Positions 3,746-57,595 of a stretch of 64,000 bases of DNA are shown here, piece by piece. Source of the stretch: a virus (taxonomy: Duplodnaviria; Caudoviricetes). The position numbers were made by a program, and so were the translations under genes. The notes below the pieces were generated by a model. It worked only from the letters and a program-made list of their open reading frames with translations. It was not told the DNA's origin and did not search any database. Each line of letters opens with the position of its first letter. The first letter of the stretch is position 1. The stretch spans positions 6,669 through 70,668 of IMG/VR virus record IMGVR_UViG_2974677434_000001, one strand, 5' to 3'.

Positions 3746-3767
3746 TTGCACACCCGGTCTCTAGTGT
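3746..3767 (+). promoter_or_regulatory. putative late promoter for major capsid gene
   Basis: TTGCAC-N10-TAGTGT, same geometry as 8918 and 32619. Confidence 0.6.
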
Positions 3768-3856
3768 TCGTCAGCAGAGAAGCCCTCGCCCGCGTTGTGT
3801 ACCGGAGTGCCGATCGCCGCAAGATCAACAGCTTGACCCAGACCGAGGAGATTGCA

Positions 3857-5683
3857 GTGAGCCTGCCTTCCGCCCGCCATCGCCGGGTGAACATCCTTGC
3901 TCGCGCCGTCGGCCAGTTCGCGCACCAGATGCCCGAACAGCTTCCGGAGACCGTCGAGGAGCTGGACGCGCTCCTCAACGCGGCGCGAGCCGAGATCAAC
4001 GTCATTGCCGCGCGGCGTGCCAACGGGGAGACCCTGACGGGCGCTGACCGCGATCGGCTCAAGTCCATCCTGGGCGACATCGACACCCTCACCTCGGCCC
4101 GCGCCGAGGCGGCGACCGCAGCTTCGGCTGGCGAGCCTGCCGACGAGGCCGAGCTGGACGCGCTGCTCGCGCAGGCCCAGGGCGGCACCGAGGGCGGCGA
4201 GGGCCAGCCGGAGGGTGAGCCGGAAGGCCAGCCCGAGGGCGAGCCGGAAGGCGGCAACGAGGGCGGCGAAGGCCAGCCCGAGGGCCAGCCCGCCGGACAG
4301 GTCCAGGAGCCGGTCATGGCCGGAGCGCCGTCCAACGGTGCCCGCCCCGTGACCTTCGCCGGAGCCGGAGCTGGCGGCGTACCGCCCGCAGCGGTGGCGA
4401 CGAAGGCCCCCGGCTGGCAGCTCCACCCCGGCGCTCCCGGCTTCAAGGAGGGCATGGGCAAGGTCGGCTTCAAGGAGATCAGCCTGGCCCTGGAGTCGAT
4501 CCGGCCCGGCAGCCGTGCCGCGATCCGGCCCAATCGTCCGAACAAGACGATGGACGGGCAGGAGTTCGCGCGCCAGGTGGTCTCCACCCTGGAGCGCGAG
4601 GTCGAGGTCGTCGGCGACAGCCACGCGCTCGTCGCCGCGATCACCGAGGCCACGAAGTCGCGCAATCTCGCCGAGCCGACCTTCGACAAGCGGGGTAGCC
4701 TCGTCGCCGCTGGCGGCTGGTGCGCCCCGTCGGAGCAGCTCTACGACTTCTGCGACGTGCCGGACGCCACCGATCTGGTCTCGCTCCCCGAGATCACGAT
4801 CAATCGCGGCGGCATCCGCTGGCCCCGCGAGCCTGACCTGTCGGGCATCTTCGAGGACTTCGAGTGGTTCTTCACCGAGCCGGAGCTGGAGGCGACCGAC
4901 GCCGAAGGCAACCCGACCGCGATCAAGACCTGCGTCGAGGTGCCGTGCCCCGAGGACTTCGATGAAATCCGGCTCAACGCGATGGGCTGGTGCGTCGAGG
5001 CGGGCATCCTCCAGGAGCAGGGCTGGCCGGAGCTGGTCGAGTGGTTCATGCGCTCGCTCACCCAGGAGCACATCCGCGCGCTGAGCCGCCGGACGATCCT
5101 CAACATGGTGGCCGGGTCGGGTGCGCCGATCGTCATCCCGCCGACCAGCACGCTGGGAGCCGCGCCGTCGGTCCTCAACACGCTGGCGCTGATGGCGACG
5201 AACATCCGCCTGAAGCGTGGCCTGGCCCGCAACGCCACGATCGAGGGCGTCGCGCCGTCGTGGTTCCACGAAGTCCTCCGCGCCGACCTCGCCATGCGCG
5301 CGGGCGGTATCGAGGTGTTCGCCATCACCGACGCGCAGATCAACAGCGCGCTGGCGGCTCGCAACATCAGCCTCCAGTTCGTCGGCGACTGGCAGACCCG
5401 CGCCGCTGGCCTGCCCGGCAACCTGGCCACCCTGGTGTGGCCGGAGACCGTGGACGTCCTGCTCTACCCGGCGGGTACCTGGTTCCGCTCGATGTCGAAC
5501 GTCATCGAGCTGGGCGTCATGTACCCCAAGGAGCAGCTCCAGGTGAACCGCTTCACGCGGATGTTCACCGAGGACGCCCTCGCGGTCGGCAAGCGCTGCG
5601 GCGAGTCGGTCGTGGTGCGTATCCCGCTCGACGTGTCCGGCGCGACCGGGCAGCCCGTGCGGGCGACCAACGTCACCCCGTAA
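3857..5683 (+). CDS. major capsid (hexamer-type) protein with N-terminal scaffold-like region
   Basis: GAGGAG SD 6 nt before GTG 3857; helical/acidic N-terminus then capsid-like body (GGWCAPSEQLYD, FTRMFTEDALAV); position after protease. Confidence 0.8.
   Translation: MSLPSARHRRVNILARAVGQFAHQMPEQLPETVEELDALLNAARAEINVIAARRANGETLTGADRDRLKSILGDIDTLTSARAEAATAASAGEPADEAELDALLAQAQGGTEGGEGQPEGEPEGQPEGEPEGGNEGGEGQPEGQPAGQVQEPVMAGAPSNGARPVTFAGAGAGGVPPAAVATKAPGWQLHPGAPGFKEGMGKVGFKEISLALESIRPGSRAAIRPNRPNKTMDGQEFARQVVSTLEREVEVVGDSHALVAAITEATKSRNLAEPTFDKRGSLVAAGGWCAPSEQLYDFCDVPDATDLVSLPEITINRGGIRWPREPDLSGIFEDFEWFFTEPELEATDAEGNPTAIKTCVEVPCPEDFDEIRLNAMGWCVEAGILQEQGWPELVEWFMRSLTQEHIRALSRRTILNMVAGSGAPIVIPPTSTLGAAPSVLNTLALMATNIRLKRGLARNATIEGVAPSWFHEVLRADLAMRAGGIEVFAITDAQINSALAARNISLQFVGDWQTRAAGLPGNLATLVWPETVDVLLYPAGTWFRSMSNVIELGVMYPKEQLQVNRFTRMFTEDALAVGKRCGESVVVRIPLDVSGATGQPVRATNVTP
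4199..4291 (+). repeat. 12-nt tandem repeat encoding E-G-(Q/E)-P
   Basis: GA(A/G)GG(C/T)(C/G)AGCC(G/C) units giving EGQPEGEPEGQPEGEPEG...EGQPEGQP. Confidence 0.8.
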
Positions 5684-5703
5684 GGGCGGCGCGTAGCTGA
5701 GCT

Positions 5704-5764
5704 GAAGGCGGGCGACGTGGACCAGATCATCCCGAGACTGTCCGCGTCGTCCGCCTTCGTTCAT
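5704..5764 (+). terminator. long hairpin (attenuator/terminator) between the two capsid genes
   Basis: 19-bp stem 5704-5722/5740-5758 with two G-U pairs, 17-nt loop, weak T-tract GTTCAT. Confidence 0.6.
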
Positions 5765-5787
5765 CCCCGATCGAGGAAGATGGAGAC

Positions 5788-6564
5788 ATGACCGCACCTG
5801 TGCTCGCGCCGTATGTGTTCGACGCTCCGCCGGTAAACCCCGCCCCCAACGGGCTGTTTGCCGCCACCGACTGGCAGCCCGAGGGCGACCAGCGCTGGCT
5901 CAACGGCGTGGAGGTACGCGGGACCAGCTTCGGCGGCAAGAACGCCTTCGGCATCTGGCCCAACGACAACTGCGTCTACGGGAGCACGCCGACGCCAGGC
6001 CAGAAGAAGGAAGGCGACCGGCCCGAGATCATCCCGCCCTTCGACCCGATCGTGGTCTGGGCCTACGACGAGTGCGACCCGACCGACCCGAGCCGCGCCG
6101 AGGTGCGCGCCCGCGCCGCGAACATCCTCCGCCTGGAGGAGCAGACGGCGATCGAGCGCGAGTTTGGCAACCGCCTGCTGGTCGACGCGGGCGTGCTCTG
6201 GACTGATGAAGGCTACGAGGCCCGGCCCACCCTCAAGGAGGCGGTGGCATACCTGGAGGGCCAGCTCAGCACGCTGTCCTACCTCCACATCGCCGCCGAC
6301 CTGCCCGCCCTGGAGGCCGGGCTGTTCACCGGCTCGGGCACCCAGAAGAAGTCGCCCGCCGGTCACACCTGGGTGATCGGGTCCGGCTACGTCGAGGGAC
6401 TCAACAACACGATCGTCGCCACCAGCCAGCCCTACGGCTGGCGCGATGCGCCGACCGTGCGCGAGGCGCTCGACGCCAAGACCAACACCTTCGCCGCAGT
6501 GGCGGAGCGTACCGTCGTCATCGGTTACGAGGCGCTGATCGCCGCCGTGACCATCACACCGTAA
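5788..6564 (+). CDS. second capsid protein (pentamer-type by analogy to cluster B phage Rosebush)
   Basis: GGAGAC SD; 258 aa; directly after MCP; PFDPIVVWAYDEC-type capsid-like motif. Function is synteny-based. Confidence 0.6.
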   Translation: MTAPVLAPYVFDAPPVNPAPNGLFAATDWQPEGDQRWLNGVEVRGTSFGGKNAFGIWPNDNCVYGSTPTPGQKKEGDRPEIIPPFDPIVVWAYDECDPTDPSRAEVRARAANILRLEEQTAIEREFGNRLLVDAGVLWTDEGYEARPTLKEAVAYLEGQLSTLSYLHIAADLPALEAGLFTGSGTQKKSPAGHTWVIGSGYVEGLNNTIVATSQPYGWRDAPTVREALDAKTNTFAAVAERTVVIGYEALIAAVTITP

Positions 6565-6574
6565 GGAGCAGGAC

Positions 6575-7597
6575 ATGCCCGAGGGGATCATCGCCACCGA
6601 CCACGGCGACGGCTTCGTGACGCTGGACTTCGTGGACAAGTCGCTGCGCGGACCGGCGCTGGACGAGCTGGTCAAGCTCGGCGGTGCCGAGACCATCGAG
6701 ACCATCAGCCGCCGAGGTCCGCGCCGCCAGTACAAGGTGCCGCTGGGCAACGCCGTCGAGCTGGGCCTGGTGGACGACGCGGCGGAGCTTGCACCGCGCG
6801 GCGCTGGAGCCAACGAGGACGGCACCGCTCGCGGGGCCTCTGCTGGCGCTGACACGGGCGCAGCGGCGCGGACGAAGGCGTCGGACCCCAACGTCAACAA
6901 GGGCAGCGACCAGGCCGACTGGCACACTCCAGTCGCCGAGCACACCTCGGCCAACGCCTACGTCGGCCAGGTGCCCAACGCCCAGGTCTTGCACGGTCGG
7001 CCCCAGGTATTCACGGGCGACGCCGACAGCTACGGCGGTCGGTCCGCGCCGGAGAATGAGACCCACCGCGAGCTGATCGACCGCGTGAAGGAGGGCAGCT
7101 CGGTGCTCGCCGTCGGCGGCGTCCAGCCCGCGACCGAGGTCGAGCCGCGCGCCCTGACCCCGGTCTCCCAGATCAACGCCAGCCTGAAGTCGCAGACCGG
7201 CGCGCTGGGCGACGACCCCGGCGCTCGGCCCGACGCGGGCGGCGAGGCCCTCGGCGACTACAGCACGCCACAGTCGCAGCGTGTCGAGTCGCCCCAGGAC
7301 GGGCAGACCACCGAGACCCTCGGCCATGTCAGCTCGGTGCCGTCCGGCAGCGAGCGCGTCCAGACCGAGGCCAGCCCCGGCACGACCGAGCCGTCGAGCG
7401 AGCCGGAGCCGACCAACGAGCCGGTCAGCAAGCCGGACACCGAGGACGTCGTGGAGTACCCCGAGGGCGAGCCGACCAAGGAGTGGCGGCGCGACGAGCT
7501 GGACGCCTACGCGCTGAAGGTCAAGGGCCTCGACACGACCAGCCTCGGCAACAAGACCGAGGTACTCGACGCGATCAAGAACGCGCCGAAGGCGTAA
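6575..7597 (+). CDS. hypothetical virion-region protein with low-complexity linker and HeH/LEM-like C-terminus
   Basis: SD AGGAGCAGGAC; C-terminal WRRDELDAYA..KGLDTTSLGNKTEVLDAI. Confidence 0.65.
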   Translation: MPEGIIATDHGDGFVTLDFVDKSLRGPALDELVKLGGAETIETISRRGPRRQYKVPLGNAVELGLVDDAAELAPRGAGANEDGTARGASAGADTGAAARTKASDPNVNKGSDQADWHTPVAEHTSANAYVGQVPNAQVLHGRPQVFTGDADSYGGRSAPENETHRELIDRVKEGSSVLAVGGVQPATEVEPRALTPVSQINASLKSQTGALGDDPGARPDAGGEALGDYSTPQSQRVESPQDGQTTETLGHVSSVPSGSERVQTEASPGTTEPSSEPEPTNEPVSKPDTEDVVEYPEGEPTKEWRRDELDAYALKVKGLDTTSLGNKTEVLDAIKNAPKA

Positions 7598-7622
7598 TGA
7601 CCAGTAATGTCTCGGCAGTAGG

Positions 7623-8087
7623 GTGACGACCGTGAACCGCGAGGATCGACTGGCCCAGGCCGACCGCCTCGCTGCGCGGATGGAGCGCCTGGAGACCTTC
7701 GCGCAGGCTGCGACGGTCCTGCTGGGGCTGATCCCGACGGCGTATGGAGTCCTGACGTGGGTGTACGGCACGGAGCTTTGGAACGACAGCCCGATCTATC
7801 AGACGGCGCTGATGACCCCAGGAGCGCCGCAGAGCTGGGGCGCGGCGATGATCATCGTCGGCGCGCTCGTCGTCACCTCCGGCTGGCGGAGTCACCAGCG
7901 GTGTCTGCTGATCACGACGCTGCTCGCGGCGCGGCTGATGGCGACCTTCATGTCGATGTTCGTGACGGAGTTCATCCAGCACACCGACCGCGAGGGCGCA
8001 GCCGCCCCGGCTATGGTCTACGCGGTTTTGTCGATGCTGTTCCTCGCCCGCGCCCGTCTGGCCTGGGCCTCCTTGAAAGGTGGCTGA
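7623..8087 (+). CDS. multi-pass membrane protein (about 4 TM)
   Basis: Four hydrophobic stretches; TGATG coupling to next gene; start could be GTG 7632. Confidence 0.7.
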   Translation: MTTVNREDRLAQADRLAARMERLETFAQAATVLLGLIPTAYGVLTWVYGTELWNDSPIYQTALMTPGAPQSWGAAMIIVGALVVTSGWRSHQRCLLITTLLAARLMATFMSMFVTEFIQHTDREGAAAPAMVYAVLSMLFLARARLAWASLKGG

Positions 8088-8587
8088 TGGCAGTAAGTCG
8101 CCGGGTGGGGTCATGGTTGGCTCACACCCGTTTCGTACCGACCCCGCTCTACCGGCTGATCTTGACGGCGGGCGTCATCAGCTCGCTGCTCCAGTTCATC
8201 TACGGCGCGCCGGTATCGGTCGCGGCGGTGAGCGACAGCGCGGCCTTCAACTGGGCCTTCGTCGTGGTCCAGTTCGTCGGCGCGGTGCTGGCCCTGACCG
8301 GCCTCTACCTGGTCGAGGGTGAGACCCCGCCGCCCTGGGTGAGCGTCGCTGACGTTGCGCGTGGGCGTGCCGAGATCAACCCCGAGAAGCTCCATCGCTC
8401 GCTCAGCATCGAGCTGCTGGGCCTGATCTTCATCCAGACCGTGATCGCCGTCCAGCTCGCGGCGTCGACCCTCGACCAGGGGCGCATCCCGTCGAGCCTG
8501 GCTATCTGGGCGCTGGCGGTGTTCTGGGCCTGGTCCTTCATCCGCGACCGGGACATCCTGCGCGCCCTGCGGAAGCTGACACGATGA
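8087..8587 (+). CDS. multi-pass membrane protein (about 4 TM)
   Basis: ATG 8087 overlaps upstream TGA; hydrophobic segments. ORF track start 7757 is an upstream extension. Confidence 0.7.
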   Translation: MAVSRRVGSWLAHTRFVPTPLYRLILTAGVISSLLQFIYGAPVSVAAVSDSAAFNWAFVVVQFVGAVLALTGLYLVEGETPPPWVSVADVARGRAEINPEKLHRSLSIELLGLIFIQTVIAVQLAASTLDQGRIPSSLAIWALAVFWAWSFIRDRDILRALRKLTR

Positions 8588-8916
8588 CCGCCGCCCTCGT
8601 CCTTCAGATGATCGGCGGGGCGGGTTTTCTGGCAGGCATCGTAGCAATTCTGCACTTCTTCAACACCCGCAAGTCAACCCGCAGTAAGGGCAGCGCCGAG
8701 GCTTACCAGGCATATCGGACCTTCGTTGCTGGGGCCTTCGAGGACGCCGCCGGAGTGACCAGTCGCGTGACCGCCGACCGCGACAAGCTCGCCGGTATCC
8801 GCGCGACGCTGATCGACCTGGCCCAGGACTTGATCAGCTTCGCCCGGCGCAAGGGCGCGACGCCCGACGAGCTGGAGCCATACCAGGACCGGCTCGACAC
8901 CGCCCGCGACCGCTAG
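8584..8916 (+). CDS. single-TM protein with C-terminal coiled coil
   Basis: ATGA overlap; N-terminal TM GGAGFLAGIVAILHFF then amphipathic helices. Confidence 0.7.
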   Translation: MTAALVLQMIGGAGFLAGIVAILHFFNTRKSTRSKGSAEAYQAYRTFVAGAFEDAAGVTSRVTADRDKLAGIRATLIDLAQDLISFARRKGATPDELEPYQDRLDTARDR

Positions 8917-8917
8917 G

Positions 8918-8939
8918 TTGCACGGTCCTGGCCTAGTGT
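8918..8939 (+). promoter_or_regulatory. putative late promoter for major tail gene
   Basis: TTGCAC-N10-TAGTGT. Confidence 0.6.
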
Positions 8940-8999
8940 CGTGACCAGTCTCGGGAGACTGACCCGGCGCACCGCGCCCGACCCAGGAGGACCGACCAG

Positions 9000-9800
9000 A
9001 TGCCTGGCATCCAGCCCGTCAAGGGCCGACGCCTGCGGGCGACGAAGATCAACGGCTGCGGTATGCCCATCGCCGGGCCTCGCAACCGCCTCGTTACCGG
9101 CGGCTACGTCAGCCTCACGCTGACCCCGGTGATGCGGGAAGCCACCGACCTGACCCAGGACAACGCCGAGGGCAAGGAATGCTTCTCGGACCGCACCGCA
9201 CCCGAGCGCCGCTGGTACACCCCGGCGCTGGAGCTGTGCAACGTGAACACGGGTCTGCTGACCATGTTCACCGGCTGGGAGTCCATCCTCGACGCCAACG
9301 ATCTGCCGGTCGGCTTCCGCGACCAGAAGGAGATCGAGTCGGAGTTTGGCATCGCCCTGGAGCTGTGGACAGCCGGGAAGATGGAGGAGGACTGCGACGA
9401 GATTCCGACGACCGACGCGGTGCTCACCCAGACCGGCTCGGGTCGCAGCTACGGCTACTTCCTGTTTGGCGGGACGGAGTGGACGCCCGGCGACATCACG
9501 ATCGGCGCGACGGTCTCGACCTTCACGCTGACGGGCCGGACGATCGCCCTCCCGTCGTGGGGTCGCGGTCCGTACAACGTCACCCTCAACGCGGACGGCG
9601 ATCCCGCCCGCCTGCTCCAGCCGACGTCGAAGAAGGAGCACCTCACGGTGTTCCGTACCTACGTCGCGCCGCCGGAGCCGACCGAGGGCAGCGAGCCGGT
9701 CGCGTTGGCCACCAACACGATCTTTACCGCGCCCAACTTCTACTACGGCGGACCGGCCAACGAGCCGGAGGCCGACGTCGCACCTCCGCAGGCAGCGTAA
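9000..9800 (+). CDS. major tail protein
   Basis: AGGAGG SD; GRRLRATKINGCG and LELCNVNTGLL motifs typical of actinophage tail tubes; followed by terminator. Confidence 0.8.
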   Translation: MPGIQPVKGRRLRATKINGCGMPIAGPRNRLVTGGYVSLTLTPVMREATDLTQDNAEGKECFSDRTAPERRWYTPALELCNVNTGLLTMFTGWESILDANDLPVGFRDQKEIESEFGIALELWTAGKMEEDCDEIPTTDAVLTQTGSGRSYGYFLFGGTEWTPGDITIGATVSTFTLTGRTIALPSWGRGPYNVTLNADGDPARLLQPTSKKEHLTVFRTYVAPPEPTEGSEPVALATNTIFTAPNFYYGGPANEPEADVAPPQAA

Positions 9801-9826
9801 GCTCCTCGGCATCAGCGAAGCGGCAA

Positions 9827-9853
9827 CCGCCCCGGTCCTCTGGACCGGGGCGG
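9827..9853. terminator. hairpin between convergent genes
   Basis: Perfect 12-bp stem CCGCCCCGGTCC/GGACCGGGGCGG with 3-nt loop. Confidence 0.7.
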
Positions 9854-9868
9854 CTGTCGTTGTGGCGC

Positions 9869-10351
9869 TCAGCGCCCGCTGGCGCGCATCAGGGCGGCGT
9901 TGTCGGCGCGGTCCTGCTCCATGAGGGCCTCGGCGCTGCCTGCCGCCTTCAGGTGCCCGATGGCGGTGTGGATGTTGCCGGACAGGTTGCCGCCGGTCAC
10001 GTTCATCAGGAAGTGAGCGTGACGCACGACCGCGCCGCGATCGTTGGCGGCGACCGGCATCAGCGCCGCCGCCTGGCGGTCGTGCATCCGGCTGACCGCT
10101 TCGTCCGACATGAAGTAGGGCGACGGCTCCAGGACCAGCCCGCCGTCGGCGGTCGGCGTGCCCTCGGCGAGGATCGCCTCGGCGGCGTCGACATCGGGGC
10201 GCTCGGTGGCCTTGAAGATTCCAAGGCCCTGCTCGGCGATCACGCGGAGCGCGGCGTCGACAAGGCCCTGCTTGCCCAGCGCGAGGTGAAGTCCTCGCAG
10301 GAAGGCGTCGGTCTCCTCGGCGGTCAGCTCGCGGGTGTCGTAGTCGGTCAT
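9869..10351 (-). CDS. hypothetical early protein (160 aa), leftward insert in tail operon
   Basis: ATG 10351 with GAGGAGAGG SD and full promoter cassette. Confidence 0.75.
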   Translation of the reverse strand: MTDYDTRELTAEETDAFLRGLHLALGKQGLVDAALRVIAEQGLGIFKATERPDVDAAEAILAEGTPTADGGLVLEPSPYFMSDEAVSRMHDRQAAALMPVAANDRGAVVRHAHFLMNVTGGNLSGNIHTAIGHLKAAGSAEALMEQDRADNAALMRASGR

Positions 10352-10424
10352 GGTGTCCTCTCCTCGGCGGGACCATCCCGCCTCTGACAAATAGAAAGTT
10401 ACCCGACATCGGCAGGCATGTCAA
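10352..10424 (-). promoter_or_regulatory. early cassette copy 2
   Basis: TTGACA(10424-10419)-tgcctgccgatgtcggg-TAACTT(10401-10396), hairpin GGCGGGATGGTCCCGCC, SD. Confidence 0.85.
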
Positions 10425-10460
10425 CACATCGCCGACACCGCCGCGCGATACCCTGAGCGC

Positions 10461-11210: not shown

Positions 11211-11728
11211 TGCCGTGCAAGACCGACCCCGCCGGACCCGTCATCGACGCGGTGGCCGAGGCGCTGCTCGGGTGGTTCGCACCTAACGAGGAGTGCCCGC
11301 CCGCGATCGGCGCGGTGGAGACCGTGCGCTTCCTGGCCGGTGACTCCATCCCGCTGTCGGCGTGGAATAGCGTTGCGGGCTGCGACAATCCCTTCGCCTG
11401 GCTGCGCGTCATGTCGCGCTACCGCTCCTCGACCTTCCCGACGCCGACGACCGCGACCAACCCCTGCGGGCTGCCTCGCGTCGTGGCCATCGAGGTGGGC
11501 GTCGCGTGGTGCGCGGTGACCGACCAGGAGCCGCGCTGGGACGACTGGGCAGCCGAGGCGGCGAAGTCGCTCGATACCTCCTGGCGGCTGGAGGAGGCCC
11601 TCTGCGCCGCCTCGAAGAAGCTCGACCTGGCCGAGGAGCAGCGGCAAGTCGGGACCAGCACCCTGACCCCGTATGGTCCAGACGGGGATGCCATCGCCTG
11701 GACCGGCATCATCTACGCGAGCTTGTGA
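11210..11728 (+). CDS. putative head-tail connector / tail terminator
   Basis: TGATG coupling; synteny. Specific role is inferred. Confidence 0.55.
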   Translation: MPCKTDPAGPVIDAVAEALLGWFAPNEECPPAIGAVETVRFLAGDSIPLSAWNSVAGCDNPFAWLRVMSRYRSSTFPTPTTATNPCGLPRVVAIEVGVAWCAVTDQEPRWDDWAAEAAKSLDTSWRLEEALCAASKKLDLAEEQRQVGTSTLTPYGPDGDAIAWTGIIYASL

Positions 11729-11738
11729 GGAGCAGATC

Positions 11739-12065: not shown

Positions 12066-12068
12066 CCC

Positions 12069-13188: not shown

Positions 13189-13207
13189 TCGCGCCCTACT
13201 GCGATAG

Positions 13208-19144
<5,937 letters not shown>

Positions 19145-19153
19145 GGAGACCCC

Positions 19154-25500: not shown

Positions 25501-25536
25501 CCAGCAGGCCCACCCTCGACAGATAGGATCACCCGC

Positions 25537-29211: not shown

Positions 29212-29233
29212 TTGCCCGCCGACCCGATACCCT
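29212..29233 (+). promoter_or_regulatory. putative late, leaderless promoter
   Basis: TTGCCC-N10-TACCCT, ATG 7 nt downstream. Confidence 0.55.
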
Positions 29234-32524: not shown

Positions 32525-32599
32525 GATGTTCTCTCCTGGTCCGGCGGGTCCATCCCGCCTCACATCCACGAAGTTACCCGACATCGGCAGGCTTGTCAA
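32525..32599 (-). promoter_or_regulatory. early cassette copy 3
   Basis: TTGACA(32599-32594)-agcctgccgatgtcggg-TAACTT(32576-32571), hairpin GGCGGGATGGACCCGCC, SD. Confidence 0.85.
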
Positions 32600-32618: not shown

Positions 32619-32640
32619 TTGCACGGGGAAGTCGTACCGT
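32619..32640 (+). promoter_or_regulatory. putative late, leaderless promoter of lysis cassette
   Basis: TTGCAC-N10-TACCGT, GTG 7 nt downstream. Confidence 0.6.
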
Positions 32641-40104: not shown

Positions 40105-40160
40105 GGATCGCCGGGCGACCGGCCACCTCTGAAGTTACCCGACTTCGGCGGGCTTGTCTA
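40105..40160 (-). promoter_or_regulatory. early cassette copy 4 (helicase operon)
   Basis: TAGACA(40160-40155)-agcccgccgaagtcggg-TAACTT(40137-40132); hairpin is divergent. Confidence 0.75.
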
Positions 40161-50264: not shown

Positions 50265-50353
50265 GATGCTCCTTCTTCGATCCCGGCGGGTCGGTCCCGA
50301 CTGCGGGTTACCAAGGTGTACCCGACGGCGGGTCTCGGTGTCAAGCAGTTCCC

Positions 50354-50680
50354 CTACTTCGGGTGGCGTTCTCCGGTACGCGCCCAGCGCTGACCGCGCT
50401 GGACCTGGTAGAGCAGGCCCAGCGAGCGCGCCAACGGCATCGGCAGCAAACGCATGAGCCGGGTCCACTCCGACTCCTGCGGGGTGCCGCGCCCCATCAG
50501 CTCCTCGACCATCGCGCAGAAGGGGCCGAAGGTGTTGGCCGACTGCGGGCGCGCGGTGGCGTACCCGAGGGCGAAGGCCAGCGCGACGATCGGGGCCTGG
50601 CTCAGCGGGACGTTGCGGTCGTCGTCACCGAAGCGGGCGTCGGCGCGAGCCTGCGCCGGAAGGAAGGGGTTGTCGGTCAT
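50354..50680 (-). CDS. hypothetical protein (108 aa), leaderless
   Basis: TACTCT 6 nt upstream of ATG 50680. Confidence 0.6.
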   Translation of the reverse strand: MTDNPFLPAQARADARFGDDDRNVPLSQAPIVALAFALGYATARPQSANTFGPFCAMVEELMGRGTPQESEWTRLMRLLPMPLARSLGLLYQVQRGQRWARTGERHPK

Positions 50681-50686
50681 CGGCTC

Positions 50687-50715
50687 AGAGTAGCCCGCCG
50701 AAGTCGGGGAACAAA
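50687..50715 (-). promoter_or_regulatory. operator-containing promoter variant
   Basis: Consensus operator CCCGAC-TTC-GGCGGG next to -10 TACTCT; -35 is poor. Confidence 0.6.
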
Positions 50716-51010
50716 CATATGCACATCTGCGCATGAGTGCATGGACCCCGTGCGCGTGCGCGCGACAGCGTACTCAGCGCGCTACATCTTGTCTATGTCG
50801 GGTAGAAAATTTTTTCGCCCCTTGACAATGACCTTGACAGGGCCACTAGGCTTAGCTCATCTAAGAGCAGCCGTGACGGGGCCATGTCGTGGTCCAGGTG
50901 GTTGTCCTCGCCTCTCACAATCTCCTTAGTTTTCTCATCGTCCCGTGACCTGACCCGTGGCGACGCCCCGGTGCTGCTTCGTCCCTTTGATGGGCCGAAG
51001 CCACGCGGGC
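50716..51010. other. non-coding, lower-GC strand-switch region
   Basis: No well-coded ORF; AAAATTTTTT run, CCTTGACA direct repeat at 12-bp spacing. Confidence 0.55.
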
Positions 51011-51047
51011 CTTGCCGAAGGTGGGCATAGCTGGCTATGCTCGCGGG

Positions 51048-51848
51048 ATGACCACGAAGAAGCGCCGCCCGGCGCGCACGAAGCCAGACACGACCTTGCC
51101 CGAGACCCTGGAGCAGTTCGCCGCCAAACTCGACGCCGAGGCGGGCGAGGCCCAGCAGTTCGCCGACCGGGTGCGCGAGCTGTACGTCGTCCGCCACCAC
51201 ATCGACCGCCTCGACAGCCGCCGCAAGGACATCTACGAGGAGGTCAAGGTCCGCTTCCGCCGGGGTAACGATGTGGTGCTTGACCAGGGCGAAGCCTCGG
51301 GCGGGTACTACCTGCGCGAGATTACGACGAAGGTATCGACCTATCGCACGGTCGAGGCGGCGACCGTGAAGAAGGTCAAGCCGGAGCTGTGGAAGGCGGC
51401 GCGGTCGAGGCAGCCGTGGGTCAGCGTCAAGGCCCCCGACGAGTACCCCGTCCCGCCCCTGGCCGGTCGCAGTGCGAAGCTGCCGCCGGGCGGCGCGGTG
51501 CTGCGCCAGCTCGACATGGCCACGCTCATGCGCCACTACAAGGCCCCCGTGTTCGATCGCATCGGCGAGCTGCGCGAGGACGAGAAGGCGCTCAAGGCCG
51601 AGCTGGAGGCTGTGGCGGCGGTGACTAGCTGGGACGGCGAGGCGACCAAGTTCGCCGACGGCTGGACTGCCGGGCTGTGGCGGCTGGCCTTCGACGGCGA
51701 CCTGGCGCGGCGGCTGGACCCCAAGACCTGGGAGGCCCTGGCCATCGAGAAGCAGCGGGGCGGTGTGACGCGCATCCAGGTGACCGGCCTCGACCGTGCC
51801 GAGGAGTTCGGCCTGGTCGACCTCGACGGCGAGGAGCGGGCGCAGTGA
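51048..51848 (+). CDS. hypothetical coiled-coil protein with internal duplication
   Basis: TATGCT 6 nt upstream of ATG 51048; two similar coiled-coil + helix halves. Confidence 0.7.
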   Translation: MTTKKRRPARTKPDTTLPETLEQFAAKLDAEAGEAQQFADRVRELYVVRHHIDRLDSRRKDIYEEVKVRFRRGNDVVLDQGEASGGYYLREITTKVSTYRTVEAATVKKVKPELWKAARSRQPWVSVKAPDEYPVPPLAGRSAKLPPGGAVLRQLDMATLMRHYKAPVFDRIGELREDEKALKAELEAVAAVTSWDGEATKFADGWTAGLWRLAFDGDLARRLDPKTWEALAIEKQRGGVTRIQVTGLDRAEEFGLVDLDGEERAQ

Positions 51849-51912
51849 CTTGACTAGCTAAGTCGGGCAAGTGGCTGGACGTGGCGGCATAGCTAGGGAT
51901 ACCTTGGTAACC

Positions 51913-52146
51913 ATGCCGACCACCCAGCGCCCCGCAGAGACCCGCCCGGTGCCCACGAAGCCGATCCAGGTCAAGGGGATGACCGACGACCTGATCCGGC
52001 GCTTCAAGGTGGCAGCGGCGGAGGAGGGCACCAGCTACGCGGGCCTGATCGAGCAATGGCTCGACGCCCGCGACCGTGCCGCCGAGCGCCAGCGCGCCCG
52101 CCAGGCCCACCCGCTACACCGACCACGACAGGAGGCAACCGCGTGA
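51913..52146 (+). CDS. ribbon-helix-helix DNA-binding protein
   Basis: KPIQVKGMTDDLIRRFKVAAAEEGTSYAGLIEQWL; TACCTT 7 nt upstream. Confidence 0.75.
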   Translation: MPTTQRPAETRPVPTKPIQVKGMTDDLIRRFKVAAAEEGTSYAGLIEQWLDARDRAAERQRARQAHPLHRPRQEATA

Positions 52147-52334
52147 CCCAGACCAGCAAGACCACCCGCCTGCTCGCCCTGCTCGGCGTGCTGACCCTCG
52201 TCTACAACGTGACCGCCTTCGTGGCCGGGATCGTCGCCGGGGTGCGCTCGGCGGTGGCCAAGCACCGCGCCAAGATCGCCGCAGGCGACGAGCTGGCGCG
52301 CCGCCGGAAGGCGTCCGACCGTGGCGCTGGGTGA
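52143..52334 (+). CDS. small single-TM protein
   Basis: GTGA overlap with GGAGG SD. Confidence 0.65.
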   Translation: MTQTSKTTRLLALLGVLTLVYNVTAFVAGIVAGVRSAVAKHRAKIAAGDELARRRKASDRGAG

Positions 52335-52536
52335 CCTCCACGACGACGAGATAAAGGCTCGACTGGGCCTGGACCTGGGCGACACGATGGAGGACCGCAT
52401 CGTCGCGCACGCGCTGCGCGCGATGCCCGAGGACTTCGACCCCGAGACCGAGGTCGAGCTGGAGCTGTTGGACATGACGAAGGAGCGAGGAGGTGACGAT
52501 CAGCATCGTGGCAATCCAGGAGGAGCGCGGGACTAA
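52321..52536 (+). CDS. hypothetical protein
   Basis: Fills operon; GC3-rich. Confidence 0.5.
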   Translation: MALGDLHDDEIKARLGLDLGDTMEDRIVAHALRAMPEDFDPETEVELELLDMTKERGGDDQHRGNPGGARD

Positions 52537-52744
52537 GCCCGTGACGCGCAGCCGTGTCGACCGCGCGACGGCGTGCTACTACCCCGACAGCAAGCGCGTC
52601 GTGGTCGTCGCCGACCGCGCCGACTTCGCCGCAGCCGAGCAGGCCATCCGCGAGCTGCGCGACCACATCAGCCCGGCGGAGTACGTCCAGACGTGCGTCG
52701 ACTGCAATCACACCGAGCGCGCCGACGACGTGGTGACGATGTGA
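52493..52744 (+). CDS. hypothetical protein with CVDC motif
   Basis: GAG-rich SD upstream of GTG. Confidence 0.55.
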   Translation: MTISIVAIQEERGTKPVTRSRVDRATACYYPDSKRVVVVADRADFAAAEQAIRELRDHISPAEYVQTCVDCNHTERADDVVTM

Positions 52745-52995
52745 CCGGCGATCCGACGATGTGGGTCGCTGTTCGCATCGGGCGCGGCAAGAAGCCCTAC
52801 GCGGTGCGCCTCGGCGAGTCCGGCCCCTTCGCCGTCGGGCGTCCTGGCCCGTGGCGACCAAACGGCGCGGTGATCACCTTCGCGTCGTTGATCAACGCCG
52901 AGGCCCGCGCGGCGAAGCTCAACCTGGCCGACCGCGAGGCCCGGCGCAAGGCCCAGGCCGGGCTGACGCGCCGCCTGCCCGAGGTGGCCGGGTGA
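52741..52995 (+). CDS. hypothetical protein
   Basis: GTGA overlaps at both ends. Confidence 0.6.
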   Translation: MTGDPTMWVAVRIGRGKKPYAVRLGESGPFAVGRPGPWRPNGAVITFASLINAEARAAKLNLADREARRKAQAGLTRRLPEVAG

Positions 52996-53333
52996 CGACG
53001 AGGGGCGACTGCCCGCACGGGTGGCAGCCGGAGCTGTGCTGGCGATGTGAGGAGGGAGGCACGACCGTGATCGAGATTGGTACGCGCGTGCCGGAGCTGA
53101 CCCAGGAGCACGCCGACGGCACGGTCTGGGTCGACATCGAAGGCGATCTCTGGGAGGCGGTCGCGGTGTTCACGATGGCCGGGCCGGTCGTCGCCTGGCG
53201 CGTGACCCGTCGCCGTCCGTTCTGCATCAGCAGCGAGCTGGGCAGCGTGCCGGGCGTGGAGTTCGGCCCTTATGTCGCCGTGCTCGGCCCGCCACCGCAG
53301 CCGCAGGCCACCGAGGAAGATGGGCAACCATGA
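52992..53333 (+). CDS. hypothetical protein
   Basis: GTGA overlap; CPHG...CWRC N-terminus; alternative start at VIEIGT. Confidence 0.55.
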   Translation: MTTRGDCPHGWQPELCWRCEEGGTTVIEIGTRVPELTQEHADGTVWVDIEGDLWEAVAVFTMAGPVVAWRVTRRRPFCISSELGSVPGVEFGPYVAVLGPPPQPQATEEDGQP

Positions 53334-54259
53334 GCGCCGAAGCCTTCGACCCCGCCGACCACAGCTTCACCGACGAGGAGCTGGCCGACTACTTCGAGGC
53401 CGAGCTGGAGAATCGCCGGGCCGGGGTGCTGCTCGACCGGCTGAAGGGCAAGACCTACGCCGAGATTGCGCGCGAGCGCGGCATCAGCATGTCGACCGCG
53501 CGCAAGGACTACCGCCTCGCCCTGGCCGGGCAGATGGAGGAGTCGCCCGAGCTGGGCATCGCCAAGCACCGCGCCGTCATCAACGAGGTGCTCAAGGCCA
53601 ACATGGACGCGATGATGAAGGGCGACAAGGACGCCGCCGCGACCATCCTCCGCGCGCTGGAGCGTGACGCGAAGCTCAAGGGCTACGACGCGCCGACCCG
53701 CGTGCTCGCCGCCGTCAACACCCGTGACTTCGCCAACGAGGCAGCCCAGCTCATCAGCAGAATCCAGCAGCTCGACCCCGACACCCTCAAGGAGCTAACC
53801 CGTGTCCACCGACCAGCCCGGCCCATCCTCGACCAGCTCGGCCAGCGCGAAGTCATCGACGCCGAGACCGTCGAAGTCCCGCCCGCCTCACCCGCTCCTG
53901 CGCCCGACCCTGGACCCGAGCCAGAAGCCGAGCCTGTCGGAGCGCCTGGTGACGACCCCGGCCCGGCTCTTGGCATGGCTGACCGGCGGCGACCCGCTCC
54001 AGCGCCCGGCGGCAAGGGCGGCGACGTCTACTCCGCCCTCGGCTTCCCCGACGTCCTCGGCGGGCCTCGGCAACCCGACGAGGAAGGTCGGCCAGATCGT
54101 GCTGCCGGTGCGCAGCGAGGTGACGCTCCACACCAGCGAGCCGCCGATGCCGCCGACGTCGGAGCTGACGACGCGGGGCCGGGTGAGCTGGGCGCAGGCG
54201 GGGATCAGCCAGGAGGTGGAGACCTCGACGGCTGGAGCAACATCGAGGACGACTTCTAG
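53330..54259 (+). CDS. HTH protein resembling terminase small subunits
   Basis: KTYAEIARERGISMSTARKDY (HTH) and ERDAKLKGYDAP; ATGA overlap. Confidence 0.7.
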   Translation: MSAEAFDPADHSFTDEELADYFEAELENRRAGVLLDRLKGKTYAEIARERGISMSTARKDYRLALAGQMEESPELGIAKHRAVINEVLKANMDAMMKGDKDAAATILRALERDAKLKGYDAPTRVLAAVNTRDFANEAAQLISRIQQLDPDTLKELTRVHRPARPILDQLGQREVIDAETVEVPPASPAPAPDPGPEPEAEPVGAPGDDPGPALGMADRRRPAPAPGGKGGDVYSALGFPDVLGGPRQPDEEGRPDRAAGAQRGDAPHQRAADAADVGADDAGPGELGAGGDQPGGGDLDGWSNIEDDF

Positions 54260-54980
54260 CCCGTCCATCCAGCACGACGTCGAGCTGACCGAGCGCCACT
54301 CGATCAGCCTGCGCGCGGGCGACCTGCCCGACAACGGGGCCGGGGCCATCGACGTGCTGCGCCTCCACGCCCAGGCATACGCCCGCGACCGGGGCTTCGA
54401 GATTACCGGCGGCATCATGGCGCGCGTGAGCACGCCCGTGCCCGACCCGCGCGAGCAGATCATCGCCGTGGAGTTCGACGTCATCGTCGGCAAGGGCCAC
54501 CTCGGCATCGACCGGCCCGAGGACGACACCTGGGTCTGGAGCTTCCCCGCCCTCGATCACAACTGGCGGCTCCTCGACGGCGCGCTGTCCGACCCCGAGG
54601 ACCGGCCCCGTCGGCGTCGCGTCAACGTCCGGCCCGAGGGCCAGGGCGGCGCAGGCGGCGGCAAGGTCGTGCCGATGCCGGGCGTCGTGCTCGGCCCCGG
54701 CGGCGGAGGTGTCAGCGGCACGATCTCCGGCCAGGGCGGCAGGGGCGGAATGCCCGGCGGCTGGCAGGGTGGCCCGGCGATCAGGGGCGAGGGCATCGCG
54801 CCGCCGATCCACCCGGCCTGGAGCGACCCCGACCACCCGGTCAGCAAGGAGCTGCGCGAGACCTACGCGCCGCCGATCCCGCCGGTCGACCAGCGCCCGC
54901 CCTGGATGCGCCGGGGCGAGGGCTGGGACGAGGACGGCGAAGGCCCGCTCGGTGAGCAGCGCCCACCCGGCCTGGACTGA
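53802..54980 (+). CDS. hypothetical protein overlapping upstream gene by 458 nt in another frame
   Basis: AAGGAG 7 nt before GTG 53802; very high GC3 in this frame across the overlap. Confidence 0.6.
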   Translation: MSTDQPGPSSTSSASAKSSTPRPSKSRPPHPLLRPTLDPSQKPSLSERLVTTPARLLAWLTGGDPLQRPAARAATSTPPSASPTSSAGLGNPTRKVGQIVLPVRSEVTLHTSEPPMPPTSELTTRGRVSWAQAGISQEVETSTAGATSRTTSSPSIQHDVELTERHSISLRAGDLPDNGAGAIDVLRLHAQAYARDRGFEITGGIMARVSTPVPDPREQIIAVEFDVIVGKGHLGIDRPEDDTWVWSFPALDHNWRLLDGALSDPEDRPRRRRVNVRPEGQGGAGGGKVVPMPGVVLGPGGGGVSGTISGQGGRGGMPGGWQGGPAIRGEGIAPPIHPAWSDPDHPVSKELRETYAPPIPPVDQRPPWMRRGEGWDEDGEGPLGEQRPPGLD

Positions 54981-55341
54981 CCCGCTCGGCGACATCGCCC
55001 GCTTCGCCGAGCAGGCCCGCGCCAACTACCCCGCCGTCGTCGCCGACGCGCGCCAGACCGAGGAGGCCCTGATGGGCAAGGCCCGAGGCGTCACCCGTAC
55101 CCGCTTCCCCGGCGGCGAGCGGCGTCGGCCTCGCCGCGACCACGACACCGTGGCGCGCGATCGCCACAAGCACCGCCTGGAGAACAACTGGCGCATCGTG
55201 ACCACCGAGGACGGCGAGGTGCTGGCGCTGGAGCCGGGGCGCGACTTCGAGCAGACCTTCGAGGGTGGGCCGGACCCGTTCTGGGACGCGGTGGAGTTCG
55301 CCGCCCGCTGCTTGCGTGGCGAGGCCGACCCGACGAGCTAA
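54952..55341 (+). CDS. hypothetical protein
   Basis: Probable GTG 54952; start uncertain. Confidence 0.55.
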   Translation: MSSAHPAWTDPLGDIARFAEQARANYPAVVADARQTEEALMGKARGVTRTRFPGGERRRPRRDHDTVARDRHKHRLENNWRIVTTEDGEVLALEPGRDFEQTFEGGPDPFWDAVEFAARCLRGEADPTS

Positions 55342-55350
55342 CATGCGGGT

Positions 55351-55629
55351 GTGACTTCCCCGACCCCGCAGCGCTCCACCGACCTGTCCACCCGCCACTC
55401 CTCGGTCGCCTCGGTGGCCGGGTGGCTGACCAACGTCAACCCCAACTTGCCTGGTCCGCAGCGCCTCCTCGCCCAGGACATCGCGCAGCTCACCGGCCTG
55501 CTGCTCACCCGGCTGGACGATGGCCCCGAGCTGACCGCCGGTCTGCGCAAGCTGCTGGAGGCCAAGGACTGCTTCGTGCGCCAGTCGCTCGCCGACGAGC
55601 GCGCCGCGACCGGGGAGCTGAGCAACTGA
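55351..55629 (+). CDS. helical-hairpin protein, possible Acb2/Tad1-like fold
   Basis: DGPELTAGLRKLLEAKDCFVR motif. Confidence 0.65.
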   Translation: MTSPTPQRSTDLSTRHSSVASVAGWLTNVNPNLPGPQRLLAQDIAQLTGLLLTRLDDGPELTAGLRKLLEAKDCFVRQSLADERAATGELSN

Positions 55630-56072
55630 TGGGCGAGGTGGTCGACATCCGCTCCGGCGAGGTGATCGAGGGCGAGGTCGTGGAGCCGGACGCCCTGGAC
55701 CGCCTCGACGCCGCCGAGCCGCCCCTGATCCCGGCGGGCGAGTTCATCGAGCAGCGCGTCCGGCTGACCCGTCAGGAGTTCGCCGCCGTCGCGGCGGGCG
55801 AGTACCCGGCGGGCCGGACACCCGAGCACGGCGGGCCGGTGATCATCGACAAGCGCGGCAGCCGCAACCCGAGCGCCGCCGCCCACAAGGCCGAGCAGCA
55901 GGCGCGCGAGCAGCAGCGCCAGGCCCAGGCGCACTGGACCCAACAGGCTGCCGGGACGATGTTCTGGGAGGCCCAGCGCGTCGCGGTGGCCGACCCCGAC
56001 CTCGGCGAGGCGATCCTGGCCAAGCGCGCCGAGCTGGTGGCCGGAGCCAAGAAGAAGGGCATCCTGGTCTGA
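55629..56072 (+). CDS. hypothetical protein
   Basis: TGATG overlaps at both ends. Confidence 0.65.
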   Translation: MGEVVDIRSGEVIEGEVVEPDALDRLDAAEPPLIPAGEFIEQRVRLTRQEFAAVAAGEYPAGRTPEHGGPVIIDKRGSRNPSAAAHKAEQQAREQQRQAQAHWTQQAAGTMFWEAQRVAVADPDLGEAILAKRAELVAGAKKKGILV

Positions 56073-56203
56073 TGGTTCACACCCTCGCCTACTGGCTCGG
56101 CGTCCTGGTCGCGGCGGCGATCATCGTCGTGGCGATCGTCGCGGTGCTGGCGGGCATCGTCTGGGCCGGGTCGGCGATCTTCGAGCTGGCGGGCCTGGCA
56201 TGA
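56072..56203 (+). CDS. small membrane protein (43 aa), absent from ORF track
   Basis: Coupled at both ends; long hydrophobic stretch. Confidence 0.6.
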   Translation: MVHTLAYWLGVLVAAAIIVVAIVAVLAGIVWAGSAIFELAGLA

Positions 56204-56919
56204 CCGAGCACGCGACCGGACGGGTGGTCAATCACGACCCGCGCAACCGCGACTACGAGGCCCCGCGCGCAGCGGTCCGGCCCGTGTCGGTGCTGCACAC
56301 CCTCGGCCCGGTGCTCAACCAGCGCGACGTCAACGGGTGCGTCGGCTGGACCGGCGCGAACCTACTCAACGCCGCGCTCGCCGTCGGCGCGCGGTCGAAG
56401 TTCTGGGGCCGGACCACTCAACGCTTCACCCGGTCCTACCTCGGCGACGAGCAGGGCAAGGAGCTTTACTCGCTGGCCACCCGCAACGACCCCTTCCGCT
56501 GGACCTACCCGCCGAGCGACAACGGCTCCTCGGGCCTGGGCCTGGGTAAGGCGCTGGTGGCCCTGGGCGCGATCGACGGCTACGACTGGACCTTCGACTT
56601 CGGCCAGCTCATCGCGCACGCGCAGCGCCAGCCCGTGGCGATCGGCATCGTCTGGACCGATGCGATGGGCGACCCCGACAGCAAGGGCCTGATCCACATC
56701 GGCACCGACGCCCAGCTCCGGCGGGCAGTCGACCGCAACCTCGGCCATGAGGTGACGCTGCGCGGGATCAACTGGCCCCGCAAGCTCGCGCGCATCCGCA
56801 ACCAGTGGGGGCCGGACTGGGGCCTCAAGGGCGACGCGCTCATCCCGCTGGACGAGCTGGAGCGCCTGGTCATCGACCACAAGGGCGATTGCATGGTGCC
56901 CAGGCTGGCGGCGGCATGA
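56200..56919 (+). CDS. papain-like (C1A) cysteine peptidase
   Basis: PVLNQRDVNGCVGW (Gln, catalytic Cys), GHEVTLRG (His), IRNQWGPDWGLKG (Asn). Confidence 0.85.
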   Translation: MTEHATGRVVNHDPRNRDYEAPRAAVRPVSVLHTLGPVLNQRDVNGCVGWTGANLLNAALAVGARSKFWGRTTQRFTRSYLGDEQGKELYSLATRNDPFRWTYPPSDNGSSGLGLGKALVALGAIDGYDWTFDFGQLIAHAQRQPVAIGIVWTDAMGDPDSKGLIHIGTDAQLRRAVDRNLGHEVTLRGINWPRKLARIRNQWGPDWGLKGDALIPLDELERLVIDHKGDCMVPRLAAA

Positions 56920-57044
56920 CCGCGCCGCGCCCGTTCTCCTGCGCCAGCCAGGCCCACGTCTGGACGGCGATCGTCCTATCGTGCCTGGCCATAGGGCTGG
57001 GCATCGCCAACCTCGGCATCCTGCTGGCGGCGGTGATCGAGTGA
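56916..57044 (+). CDS. small membrane protein (42 aa)
   Basis: ATGA and GTGA overlaps; hydrophobic helix. Confidence 0.55.
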   Translation: MTAPRPFSCASQAHVWTAIVLSCLAIGLGIANLGILLAAVIE

Positions 57045-57592
57045 CCGGGGGCGCAGGCGAGGCCGACTTCCCGACCGAGCGCTGGCAGCCCGACGAGCTG
57101 CTCGTCCCGGCGATCCTGGCCGGGTCGCGCACGACGATGGCCGACCTGTCCGCGCCGGACCGAGCCTGGGTGGTCGCTCACATGAAGCTGGCCGGGTACA
57201 CCGCCGAGCAGACCGCCGACCGCCTGGACTGCTCGGTGCGCTCGGTGCGCTCGGTCTGGTCGGACGCGGGCGTCATCGTGGCGCTCTACCTGACCGAGGC
57301 CGACAACTTCGGCCAGACCTACCGGATGCTCGACGGCGAGCTGCGCCAGATCGTGGTCGCCCTCGGGGAGGCCGAGCGCGACCGCGACCGATACAAGGCC
57401 CAGCTCGACCGGATGCTCGACACGCTGATGACCGACGGGCGGGTGCTGTCCTTCCCGTGCGGATGCCCGCGCACGCGCTACAACACCTACGTCGCGCCCA
57501 AGACCGGCAAGGCCGGATGTCGTGAGCACCGCCGCCAGGCGGTGGCCCGGCACCGAGCGCGACGTCGTGAGCTGAGCACGGCGTCGGCCTAG
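57041..57592 (+). CDS. HTH + coiled coil + Cys/His knuckle protein
   Basis: GYTAEQTADRLDCSVRSV (sigma region 4/LuxR-like HTH); FPCGCPRTRYNTY...GCREH. Confidence 0.7.
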   Translation: MTGGAGEADFPTERWQPDELLVPAILAGSRTTMADLSAPDRAWVVAHMKLAGYTAEQTADRLDCSVRSVRSVWSDAGVIVALYLTEADNFGQTYRMLDGELRQIVVALGEAERDRDRYKAQLDRMLDTLMTDGRVLSFPCGCPRTRYNTYVAPKTGKAGCREHRRQAVARHRARRRELSTASA

Positions 57593-57595
57593 CCT
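57574..57595 (+). promoter_or_regulatory. putative late-class promoter
   Basis: GAGCAC-N10-TAGCCT, ATG 6 nt downstream. Confidence 0.45.

Follow-up and report, generated by a model that had tools for sequence, protein, structure and literature searches.

A probable late promoter class with a fixed 10-bp spacer in a Cluster-B-type mycobacteriophage, and a candidate phage factor that may read it

Background

Which promoters serve the virion and lysis genes of Cluster-B-type mycobacteriophages, and what reads them, are questions raised by a 64,000-nucleotide (nt) stretch of the viral record IMGVR_UViG_2974677434_000001 (hereafter the window), which corresponds to bases 6669-70668 of this 70,668-bp phage record of 70% G+C. 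An original prediction had singled out eight sites of the form NNGCAC-N10-TANNNT as a second promoter class lying upstream of virion and lysis genes. We find that such a class is very probably real and conserved for virion and lysis genes and, with moderate confidence, we read its members as late promoters at which a phage factor, with the protein g83 as best candidate, would replace the -35 contact. Cluster B is among the largest mycobacteriophage groups. Few mycobacteriophage late promoters have been characterised, according to a 2022 review (PMC9262239).

The window belongs to a Cluster-B-type mycobacteriophage whose virion genes are around 90% identical to those of Mycobacterium phage Hashim76, and gene names were carried over from the Hashim76 annotation by tblastn. 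More distant relatives include hundreds of Cluster-B-type mycobacteriophages and some Gordonia phages. Five relatives were fetched and compared in full (G001-G005, G005 being a provirus), and a search of IMG/VR with the capsid protein provided 56 loci with capsid identities down to about 48%.

A promoter class with invariant spacing

All eight sites of the original prediction are present in the sequence (at 3746, 8918, 32619, 29212, 57574, 10433, 13189 and 25508), and the motif is enriched against shuffled DNA, TGCAC-N10-TAnnnT being found three times in the window for 0.16 expected, a count reached by none of 100 shuffles. The shorter form GCAC-N10-TAnnnT gave five matches for 1.56 expected. 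With at most one mismatch, the two strands of the window hold eight matches only, five of which fall between genes and on the + strand, each immediately ahead of a + strand gene (capsid, major tail protein, g44, lysin A (lysA) and g85). When the spacing was varied over the whole 70.7-kb genome, GCAC-Nd-TAnnnT occurred six times forward and never in reverse at d=10, against 0-2 matches at all other values of d from 4 to 23, and this control removes any doubt that the sites were a mere selection by eye. A clear peak at d=10 is also observed in Hashim76 and in four of five other relatives; G004 shows no clear peak and has just two matches at d=10.

This spacing is maintained in front of orthologous genes. 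The exact motif, sought within 300 nt upstream of each gene in distinct orthologous upstream regions, is present before the capsid gene in 48 of 52 regions, always with N10, and before the major tail gene in 36 of 40. Among the approximately 90 distinct sites, none upstream of the capsid or tail genes has a spacing of 6-9 or 11-15, and the first 310 nt inside the genes, used as a control, contained one (capsid) and no (tail) occurrences. The spacer and the upstream flank are essentially without constraint across relatives. The motif also stands, with its distance unchanged, before the orthologues of the capsid, tail, portal, adaptor, tape-measure and lysin genes, and over the same range of capsid identity it extends to phages of Mycobacterium, Gordonia and Skermania and to a Rhodococcus prophage. 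For example, provirus G005 has eight forward sites, before genes for a g12-like protein, the portal, capsid, major tail protein, adaptor, tail assembly chaperone, tape measure and an M23 peptidase; forward and reverse counts are 7/0 in Taptic, 4/1 in SPI1, 8/0 in the M. abscessus element prophiT49-1 and 6/0 in the Gordonia phage CaiB. This conservation before orthologous genes strongly supports the distinct class that had been predicted before virion and lysis genes.

A lone reverse exact match, TTGCAC-N10-TACATT, lies in the left non-virion part of provirus G005 (L091, 2825-2845, minus strand); it could be due to chance or be a late-type promoter of a leftward gene.

Anatomy of the promoters

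In an alignment of about 87 distinct sites, TA and the final T of the -10 hexamer are invariant and the base directly before TA is C in 67 of 87. The columns at the true -35 position carry at most 0.4 bit, and conservation upstream of the -10 box is confined to TGCAC at 10 bp. An extended -10 element (TGn) is also absent from this alignment, with T at its T position in five and G at its G position in 17 of the 87 sites. Beside the boxes, A is avoided before TGCAC and G or C is preferred after it, and a conserved CAG lies around 7-9 nt past the -10 box, where the transcript start is expected. Sigma-70-type promoters have spacers of 16-19 bp, from which it follows, as had been argued, that a SigA -35 box would need a longer gap than 10 bp; the true -35 position is moreover unconserved. 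Two other parsings were discarded: if TTGCAC is taken for a -35 box followed by a 17-bp spacer, the -10 hexamer is unconserved, and a sigma-54-like element (TGCAC resembles TGGCAC) lacks the -12 element; sigma-54 is moreover not known from Actinobacteria.

The promoters would thus have no -35 box and would pair a SigA-type -10 box of normal form (TAnnnT, spanning about -12 to -7) with a 5-bp element, (T)(G/A)CAC, which lies precisely 10 bp upstream of it and spans about -27 to -23. The capsid and major tail genes would be driven by two strong copies with long leaders, and copies situated 6-7 nt before start codons that have no Shine-Dalgarno sequence (lysA, adaptor, g85, portal) would give leaderless mRNAs.

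Individual sites

Site strength is uneven. Exact copies are found before the capsid, major tail and lysA genes, and the sites as a whole form a graded series around the core (T)(G/A)CAC. With a weight matrix built from the capsid and tail sites of other genomes, whose noise floor is near 8.5 bits, only these three stand clear of noise (scores in Table 1); the matrix is too strict for leaderless sites, whose first T is often missing. Several late genes, namely lysA, the adaptor gene, g44, the tape measure gene, g37 and g85, have no Shine-Dalgarno sequence; the end of their TAnnnT box is 6-7 nt away from the start codon, which is the geometry of mycobacterial leaderless mRNAs. A leaderless form of the motif, (G/A)CAC-N10-TAnCCT at 6-7 nt from the start codon, is found at lysA, the adaptor gene, g85 and the portal gene.

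At lysA, TACCGT ends 7 nt ahead of the GTG, implying a leaderless mRNA; the site is identical in Hashim76 and reads TGCAT-N10-TACGTT in G003. The sites at 57574 and 10433 are backed by GCAC at orthologous positions in relatives. For g85, Hashim76 keeps GCGCAC-N10-TAGCCT-N6-ATG although the upstream context differs. The adaptor site has GCAC in around half of the relatives, TAnCCT at 5-6 nt from the start codon in most of them, and a full TGCAC in provirus G005. Three of the eight predicted sites (13189, 25508 and 29212) have no conserved upstream box. Even so, the -10 box and leaderless geometry are kept at g44 in G001-G004, and TAGGAT with the same geometry at g37 in G001 and G002. At the tape measure gene, TAGCCT at 6 nt from the start codon is conserved in relatives, and the corresponding position in G005, Taptic and SPI1 has a full TGCAC or GCAC.

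In the Hashim76 annotation the g85 homologue begins at the codon that corresponds to 57629; the ATG at 57602, which is conserved and lies 6 nt past TAGCCT, would be the leaderless start and would add nine residues. The uncertain site at 11656 is not present at g28 in relatives other than Hashim76, where its copy may simply reflect coding conservation. Sites at g20 and g39, with -10-like boxes at leaderless distance and a poor or unconserved upstream box, were not counted.

Regarding the long leaders, positions 3775-3862 before the capsid gene are strongly conserved in relatives, with CAGAGAGTTCCTG..C.G.GyTaTGTrCCGrGG followed by GAGGAGnTCGCAGTG, and are predicted to form a small hairpin with one co-varying pair (UA in eight sequences, CG in eight). 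The major tail leader has a separate conserved block, CCAGCCTCGGAGACCGAC.

A phage signal rather than a host signal

The capsid search of bacterial genomes identified a related prophage in Rhodococcus sp. SMB37. This 6.2-Mb genome has 28 exact motif matches, as compared with 72 for a reversed control pattern, and eight of these 28 share a single strand in 32 kb of prophage. There is no enrichment in this genome outside the prophage, indicating that the motif is not a host promoter type. Moreover, the promoters that lie inside the virion block of integrated prophages, and before the peptidase gene of G005, must presumably be silent in lysogens, which suggests dependence on a phage product that is off in the prophage. 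We therefore consider it probable, from this comparative evidence, that the promoter class needs a phage factor.

Three other explanations of the sites were considered. The SigA polymerase might use them unaided as -10-only promoters, (T)GCAC being an auxiliary element that strengthens them through the polymerase or a host factor, and the timing would depend on other events such as genome entry, replication or the silencing of early promoters. The -10 box is indeed canonical and correctly placed for leaderless starts, mycobacteria mostly use -10-only promoters, and the same motif occurs in phages of four host genera, as if a conserved host component read it. However, the Rhodococcus host genome has no excess outside the prophage, eight such promoters lie over the virion genes of integrated relatives, one precedes the peptidase gene in G005, and constitutive activity of these virion and peptidase promoters in a prophage would be costly or lethal. 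Nor is any polymerase contact known that reads sequence at -27 to -23, and this explanation appears improbable to us.

Even less credible is that (T)GCAC binds a negative regulator holding constitutive -10-only promoters off until late. A protein at -27 to -23 would obstruct the polymerase, and several helix-turn-helix (HTH) proteins are encoded in the window; yet a repressor site would not require the exact 10-bp distance, from which the approximately 90 distinct sites never depart, and the site is a single asymmetric 5-bp element with no dyad, so that we rate a repressor as very unlikely. Finally, chance resemblance among a few upstream regions chosen by eye could account for the three weak sites (13189, 25508 and 29212), and five matches of GCAC-N10-TAnnnT did arise in two of 100 shuffles, but it is contradicted by spacing, strand and conservation in orthologues; it is refuted for the strong sites and retains practically no weight.

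A candidate factor and its competitors

In the mechanism that we propose, TAnnnT would be read by the host RNA polymerase with SigA, and a factor encoded by the phage and produced from an earlier transcription unit would read (T)GCAC at about -27 to -23, standing in for the missing -35 contact. An invariant 10-bp spacing together with a single short asymmetric box looks like an element read by a protein held on the polymerase; such a pattern is not expected of a free dimeric activator or repressor. The most likely factor would be g83, a 183-residue protein with an N-terminal HTH of the sigma-region-4/LuxR type, which had already been put forward as a possible activator.

The g83 protein belongs to phrog_928, a PHROG of unknown function, and has weak Pfam matches to Sigma70_ECF and r4_2 over residues 32-74. 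Its AlphaFold (AF2) model (predicted local distance difference test, pLDDT, 90) consists of an HTH, a long helix (about 65 residues) and, at the C-terminus, a small Cys-rich zinc ribbon. The family alignment has a conserved W-PD-LL-PAILAGS motif at the N-terminal end and a CGCP..YNTY..GK.GCR.H cluster at the C-terminal end, and conservation is highest in the predicted recognition helix (C64 S65 R67 V69 R70), which fits an invariant DNA target. Searches of PDB sequences with the g83 profile gave only weak matches to DosR-type HTH domains, together with one odd 'CAP REPEAT' entry without a qualifying stretch. A full alternative sigma factor was rejected as an identity for g83, since region 2, responsible for core binding and -10 recognition, was not detected and the model comprises only HTH, helix and zinc ribbon.

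Of the genes beyond the virion block, g76 and g83 alone have homologues in all of G001-G005, and the g83 family is the sole family from outside the virion block found in every motif-bearing genome tested. In a single-sequence tblastn search, g83 matched 522 phage records, 494 of them Mycobacterium phages, and the matches include Taptic, prophiT49-1 and phages of Gordonia, Tsukamurella, Rhodococcus, Nocardia and Skermania. The g83 profile found one match each in G004, G005, Taptic and SPI1, and one in the Rhodococcus genome, where it immediately precedes the motif cluster. In searches for loci, the single g83 sequence gave no matches and its alignment gave Cluster-B-type genomes only. In the more distant relatives G005, G006, Taptic, SPI1 and prophiT49-1, integrated prophages among them, the g83-like gene adjoins the terminase gene, ahead of the portal promoter, and in the window it lies in the rightward operon of the right arm, not beside the terminase. 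The candidate thus gained support from the presence of its family in every motif-bearing genome without being proven: as this co-occurrence is confined to one broad lineage, g83 is ranked first and no more. Judging from these patterns, g83 could well be the phage factor that reads (T)GCAC, a proposal on which we are close to evenly divided and lean slightly toward doubt.

Another phage factor may read the box instead, the possibilities being g76, the g12-like protein whose gene precedes the portal gene, or a small sigma-like protein that has escaped recognition; we consider this unlikely, although it deserves some weight. The sigma-region-4-like HTH of g76, itself a weak match, scores better in Pfam than that of g83 (Sigma70_r4_2, E 1.7e-5), and both g76 and the small conserved g12-like gene are common to G001-G005. 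However, g76 was not found with a single-protein query in the motif-bearing Taptic, SPI1 and Rhodococcus genomes, its tblastn homologues being restricted to Mycobacterium and Gordonia phages, and the g12-like gene sits behind a late-type promoter in G005 and Taptic, which makes it an unlikely first switch. The two proteins g83 and g76 have no detectable similarity to each other. In PHROG, g76 is labelled 'Rnase E', a name used in some phage records; only its N-terminal sigma-4-like HTH is detectable, and its relatives align over about half its length.

Several observations weigh against our reading. Foldseek comparison of the g83 model with the PDB gave no match at E<=0.001, the likeness to sigma-4/LuxR-type domains being at the HTH level only, and VIA-align returned coiled-coil matches only (Z<=6.6). 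The Pfam and profile scans detected in g83 a region-4-like HTH and no sigma region 2, and the zinc ribbon is missing from the proviral and SPI1 versions. That g83 accompanies the motif reflects, for the most part, joint inheritance with a single virion module rather than a series of independent events, and g76 was searched as a single sequence only, as compared with g83, which was also searched as a profile. The three sites without a conserved upstream box count here as well. Most mycobacterial promoters function with a -10 box alone, so that the host polymerase might need no help. Lastly, we infer late timing, transcript starts and factor dependence from sequence.

Comparison with known systems

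Among known systems, the middle promoter of phage T4, in which a MotA box accompanies a sigma-70 -10 box and sigma is appropriated by MotA/AsiA, comes closest to the proposed mechanism; the likeness is one of principle, the late class not being a member of that family. In both, a normal -10 box is paired with a short box peculiar to the phage, which takes the place of the -35 element at a fixed and shorter distance; in T4, as proposed here, that short box is read by a phage protein made earlier and the -10 box by the host sigma. The T4 MotA box, TGCTT, lies near -30 and 11-13 bp from the -10 box, whereas (T)GCAC lies near -25 at 10 bp, and the host here is an actinobacterium. No Pfam match to MotA or AsiA was found among eight proteins scanned, g83 and g76 included, and no AsiA counterpart is known for the late class.

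The Ltr late activators of Gram-positive siphoviruses (RinA, ArpU, LtrC) offer a second comparison. Their activator is a small phage DNA-binding protein encoded beside the terminase and the late genes, a position that the g83 family, putatively DNA-binding, occupies in G005, G006, Taptic, SPI1 and prophiT49-1 but not in the window. Ltr systems have one promoter ahead of the terminase gene, whereas many promoters are dispersed within the late block here, and Cluster B proper has its g83 gene in the right arm, far from the late genes; g83 has no match to the RinA, ArpU and LtrC families in Pfam, NCBIfam or PHROG. As for mycobacterial -10-only SigA promoters, they share TAnnnT at 6-7 nt before ATG or GTG with no Shine-Dalgarno sequence, but the late class adds an invariant box at fixed spacing that is not enriched in the Rhodococcus host genome.

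A host-type promoter class in the same phage

The same genome has another, host-type family, the first class of the original prediction, TTGAC(A/T)-N17-TAA(C/G/T)TT, with 12 matches for 0.83 expected. It has a conserved, partly palindromic spacer (..CCGAnnTCGG..), and its copies are mostly followed by a GGCGGG-N5-CCCGCC hairpin and a Shine-Dalgarno sequence. Leaderless starts are also found in this class (g7, g11 and g68), which differs from the late class by a canonical -35 box, a 17-bp spacer, its association with non-virion genes and its mostly leftward orientation. Three copies stand back-to-back with late-type sites (Table 1).

Before the window, at 1440-2010 and 4640-4700 of the genome, lie an adenylate-kinase/terminase operon and a divergent RuvC-like/g12 pair, both opened by host-type leaderless promoters (GTCGGGTAACAT, 7 nt before the ATG). 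As the first promoter of the terminase operon is host-type and leaderless and not late-type, the terminase of the window phage appears to stand outside the late promoter class. This arrangement fits a factor made ahead of the late genes.

A large divergent intergenic region at 50690-51090, less G+C-rich than its surroundings and containing a T-run, presumably holds the promoter of the rightward operon of g76 and g83. Two overlapping TTGACA boxes (around 50822 and 50834) were observed there with no clean -10 box identified, and a consensus promoter scan of 48.7-58.4 kb found no promoter for the g83 operon.

Table 1. Predicted promoters, candidate factors and gene blocks of the window (window coordinates unless stated otherwise)
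Feature	Position	Strand or direction	Remarks
Late-type promoter, major capsid (hexamer) gene, GTG 3857	3746..3767	+	TTGCAC-N10-TAGTGT; 89-nt leader; matrix score 24.1
Late-type promoter, major tail protein gene, ATG 9000	8918..8939	+	TTGCAC-N10-TAGTGT; 60-nt leader; matrix score 26.5
Late-type promoter, lysin A gene, GTG 32648	32619..32640	+	TTGCAC-N10-TACCGT; matrix score 11.4
Leaderless late-type promoter, g85 (DUF7218 protein), ATG 57602	57574..57595	+	GAGCAC-N10-TAGCCT
Leaderless late-type promoter, head-to-tail adaptor gene, GTG 10461	10433..10454	+	CGACAC-N10-TACCCT (ACAC variant)
Leaderless late-type promoter, portal gene	genome 5119, just outside the window		GCAC or ACAC in about 45 of 46 loci
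Weak site, g44 (tail-fibre-like), ATG 29241	29212..29233	+	TTGCCC-N10-TACCCT; upstream box not kept
Weak site, tape measure gene, GTG 13217	13189..13210	+	TCGCGC-N10-TAGCCT
Weak site, g37, ATG 25537	25508..25529	+	GCCCAC-N10-TAGGAT; upstream box not kept
Uncertain site, 3' end of g27, 61 nt before g28	11656..11677	+	CAGCAC-N10-TATGGT
g83, best candidate reader of (T)GCAC	57041..57592	+	183 residues; N-terminal sigma-region-4/LuxR-type HTH
g76, rival candidate factor	53330..54259	+	N-terminal sigma-region-4-like HTH
Host-type promoter	3699..3727	-	TTGACT-N17-TAACTT; back-to-back with capsid late promoter
Host-type promoter	10396..10424	-	TTGACA-N17-TAACTT; back-to-back with adaptor site
Host-type promoter	32571..32599	-	TTGACA-N17-TAACTT; back-to-back with lysA late promoter
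Other host-type copies	40132-40160, 58289-58317, 61283-61311, 62211-62239, 62834-62862, 63868-63896	-	
Host-type copy	63932-63960	+	
Virion genes	window start to about 30.8 kb	rightward	Hashim76 annotation transfer
lysA, holin, lysB	32.6-35.7 kb		Hashim76 annotation transfer
Replication genes	35.7-50.7 kb	leftward	Hashim76 annotation transfer
Operon with g76 and g83	51.1-57.9 kb	rightward	Hashim76 annotation transfer
Small genes	remainder of the window	leftward	Hashim76 annotation transfer

Significance for the Cluster B group

No published description of the motif or of g83 was found in the literature. The analysis yields a precise consensus, around six promoters per genome, predicted leaderless late mRNAs and a single named candidate activator, that is, a testable late-promoter model for a phage group in which almost none is known. 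We also suggest, tentatively and with more doubt than belief, that the g83 family (phrog_928) could be a new polymerase-bound specificity subunit, in which a sigma-region-4-like domain, standing alone and carried by a long helical arm, would dock on the SigA holoenzyme and read TGCAC at -27 to -23. If true, this subunit would use a compact 10-bp-spacer geometry unknown for any sigma-70-type enzyme, and it would be present in hundreds of phages and prophages whose hosts are Mycobacterium, Gordonia, Rhodococcus, Skermania and relatives. Should the idea of a phage factor hold, the system would be the first described late-gene switch of the Cluster B group, with an unusual promoter geometry, and would provide a tightly off/on, phage-inducible expression element for mycobacteria.

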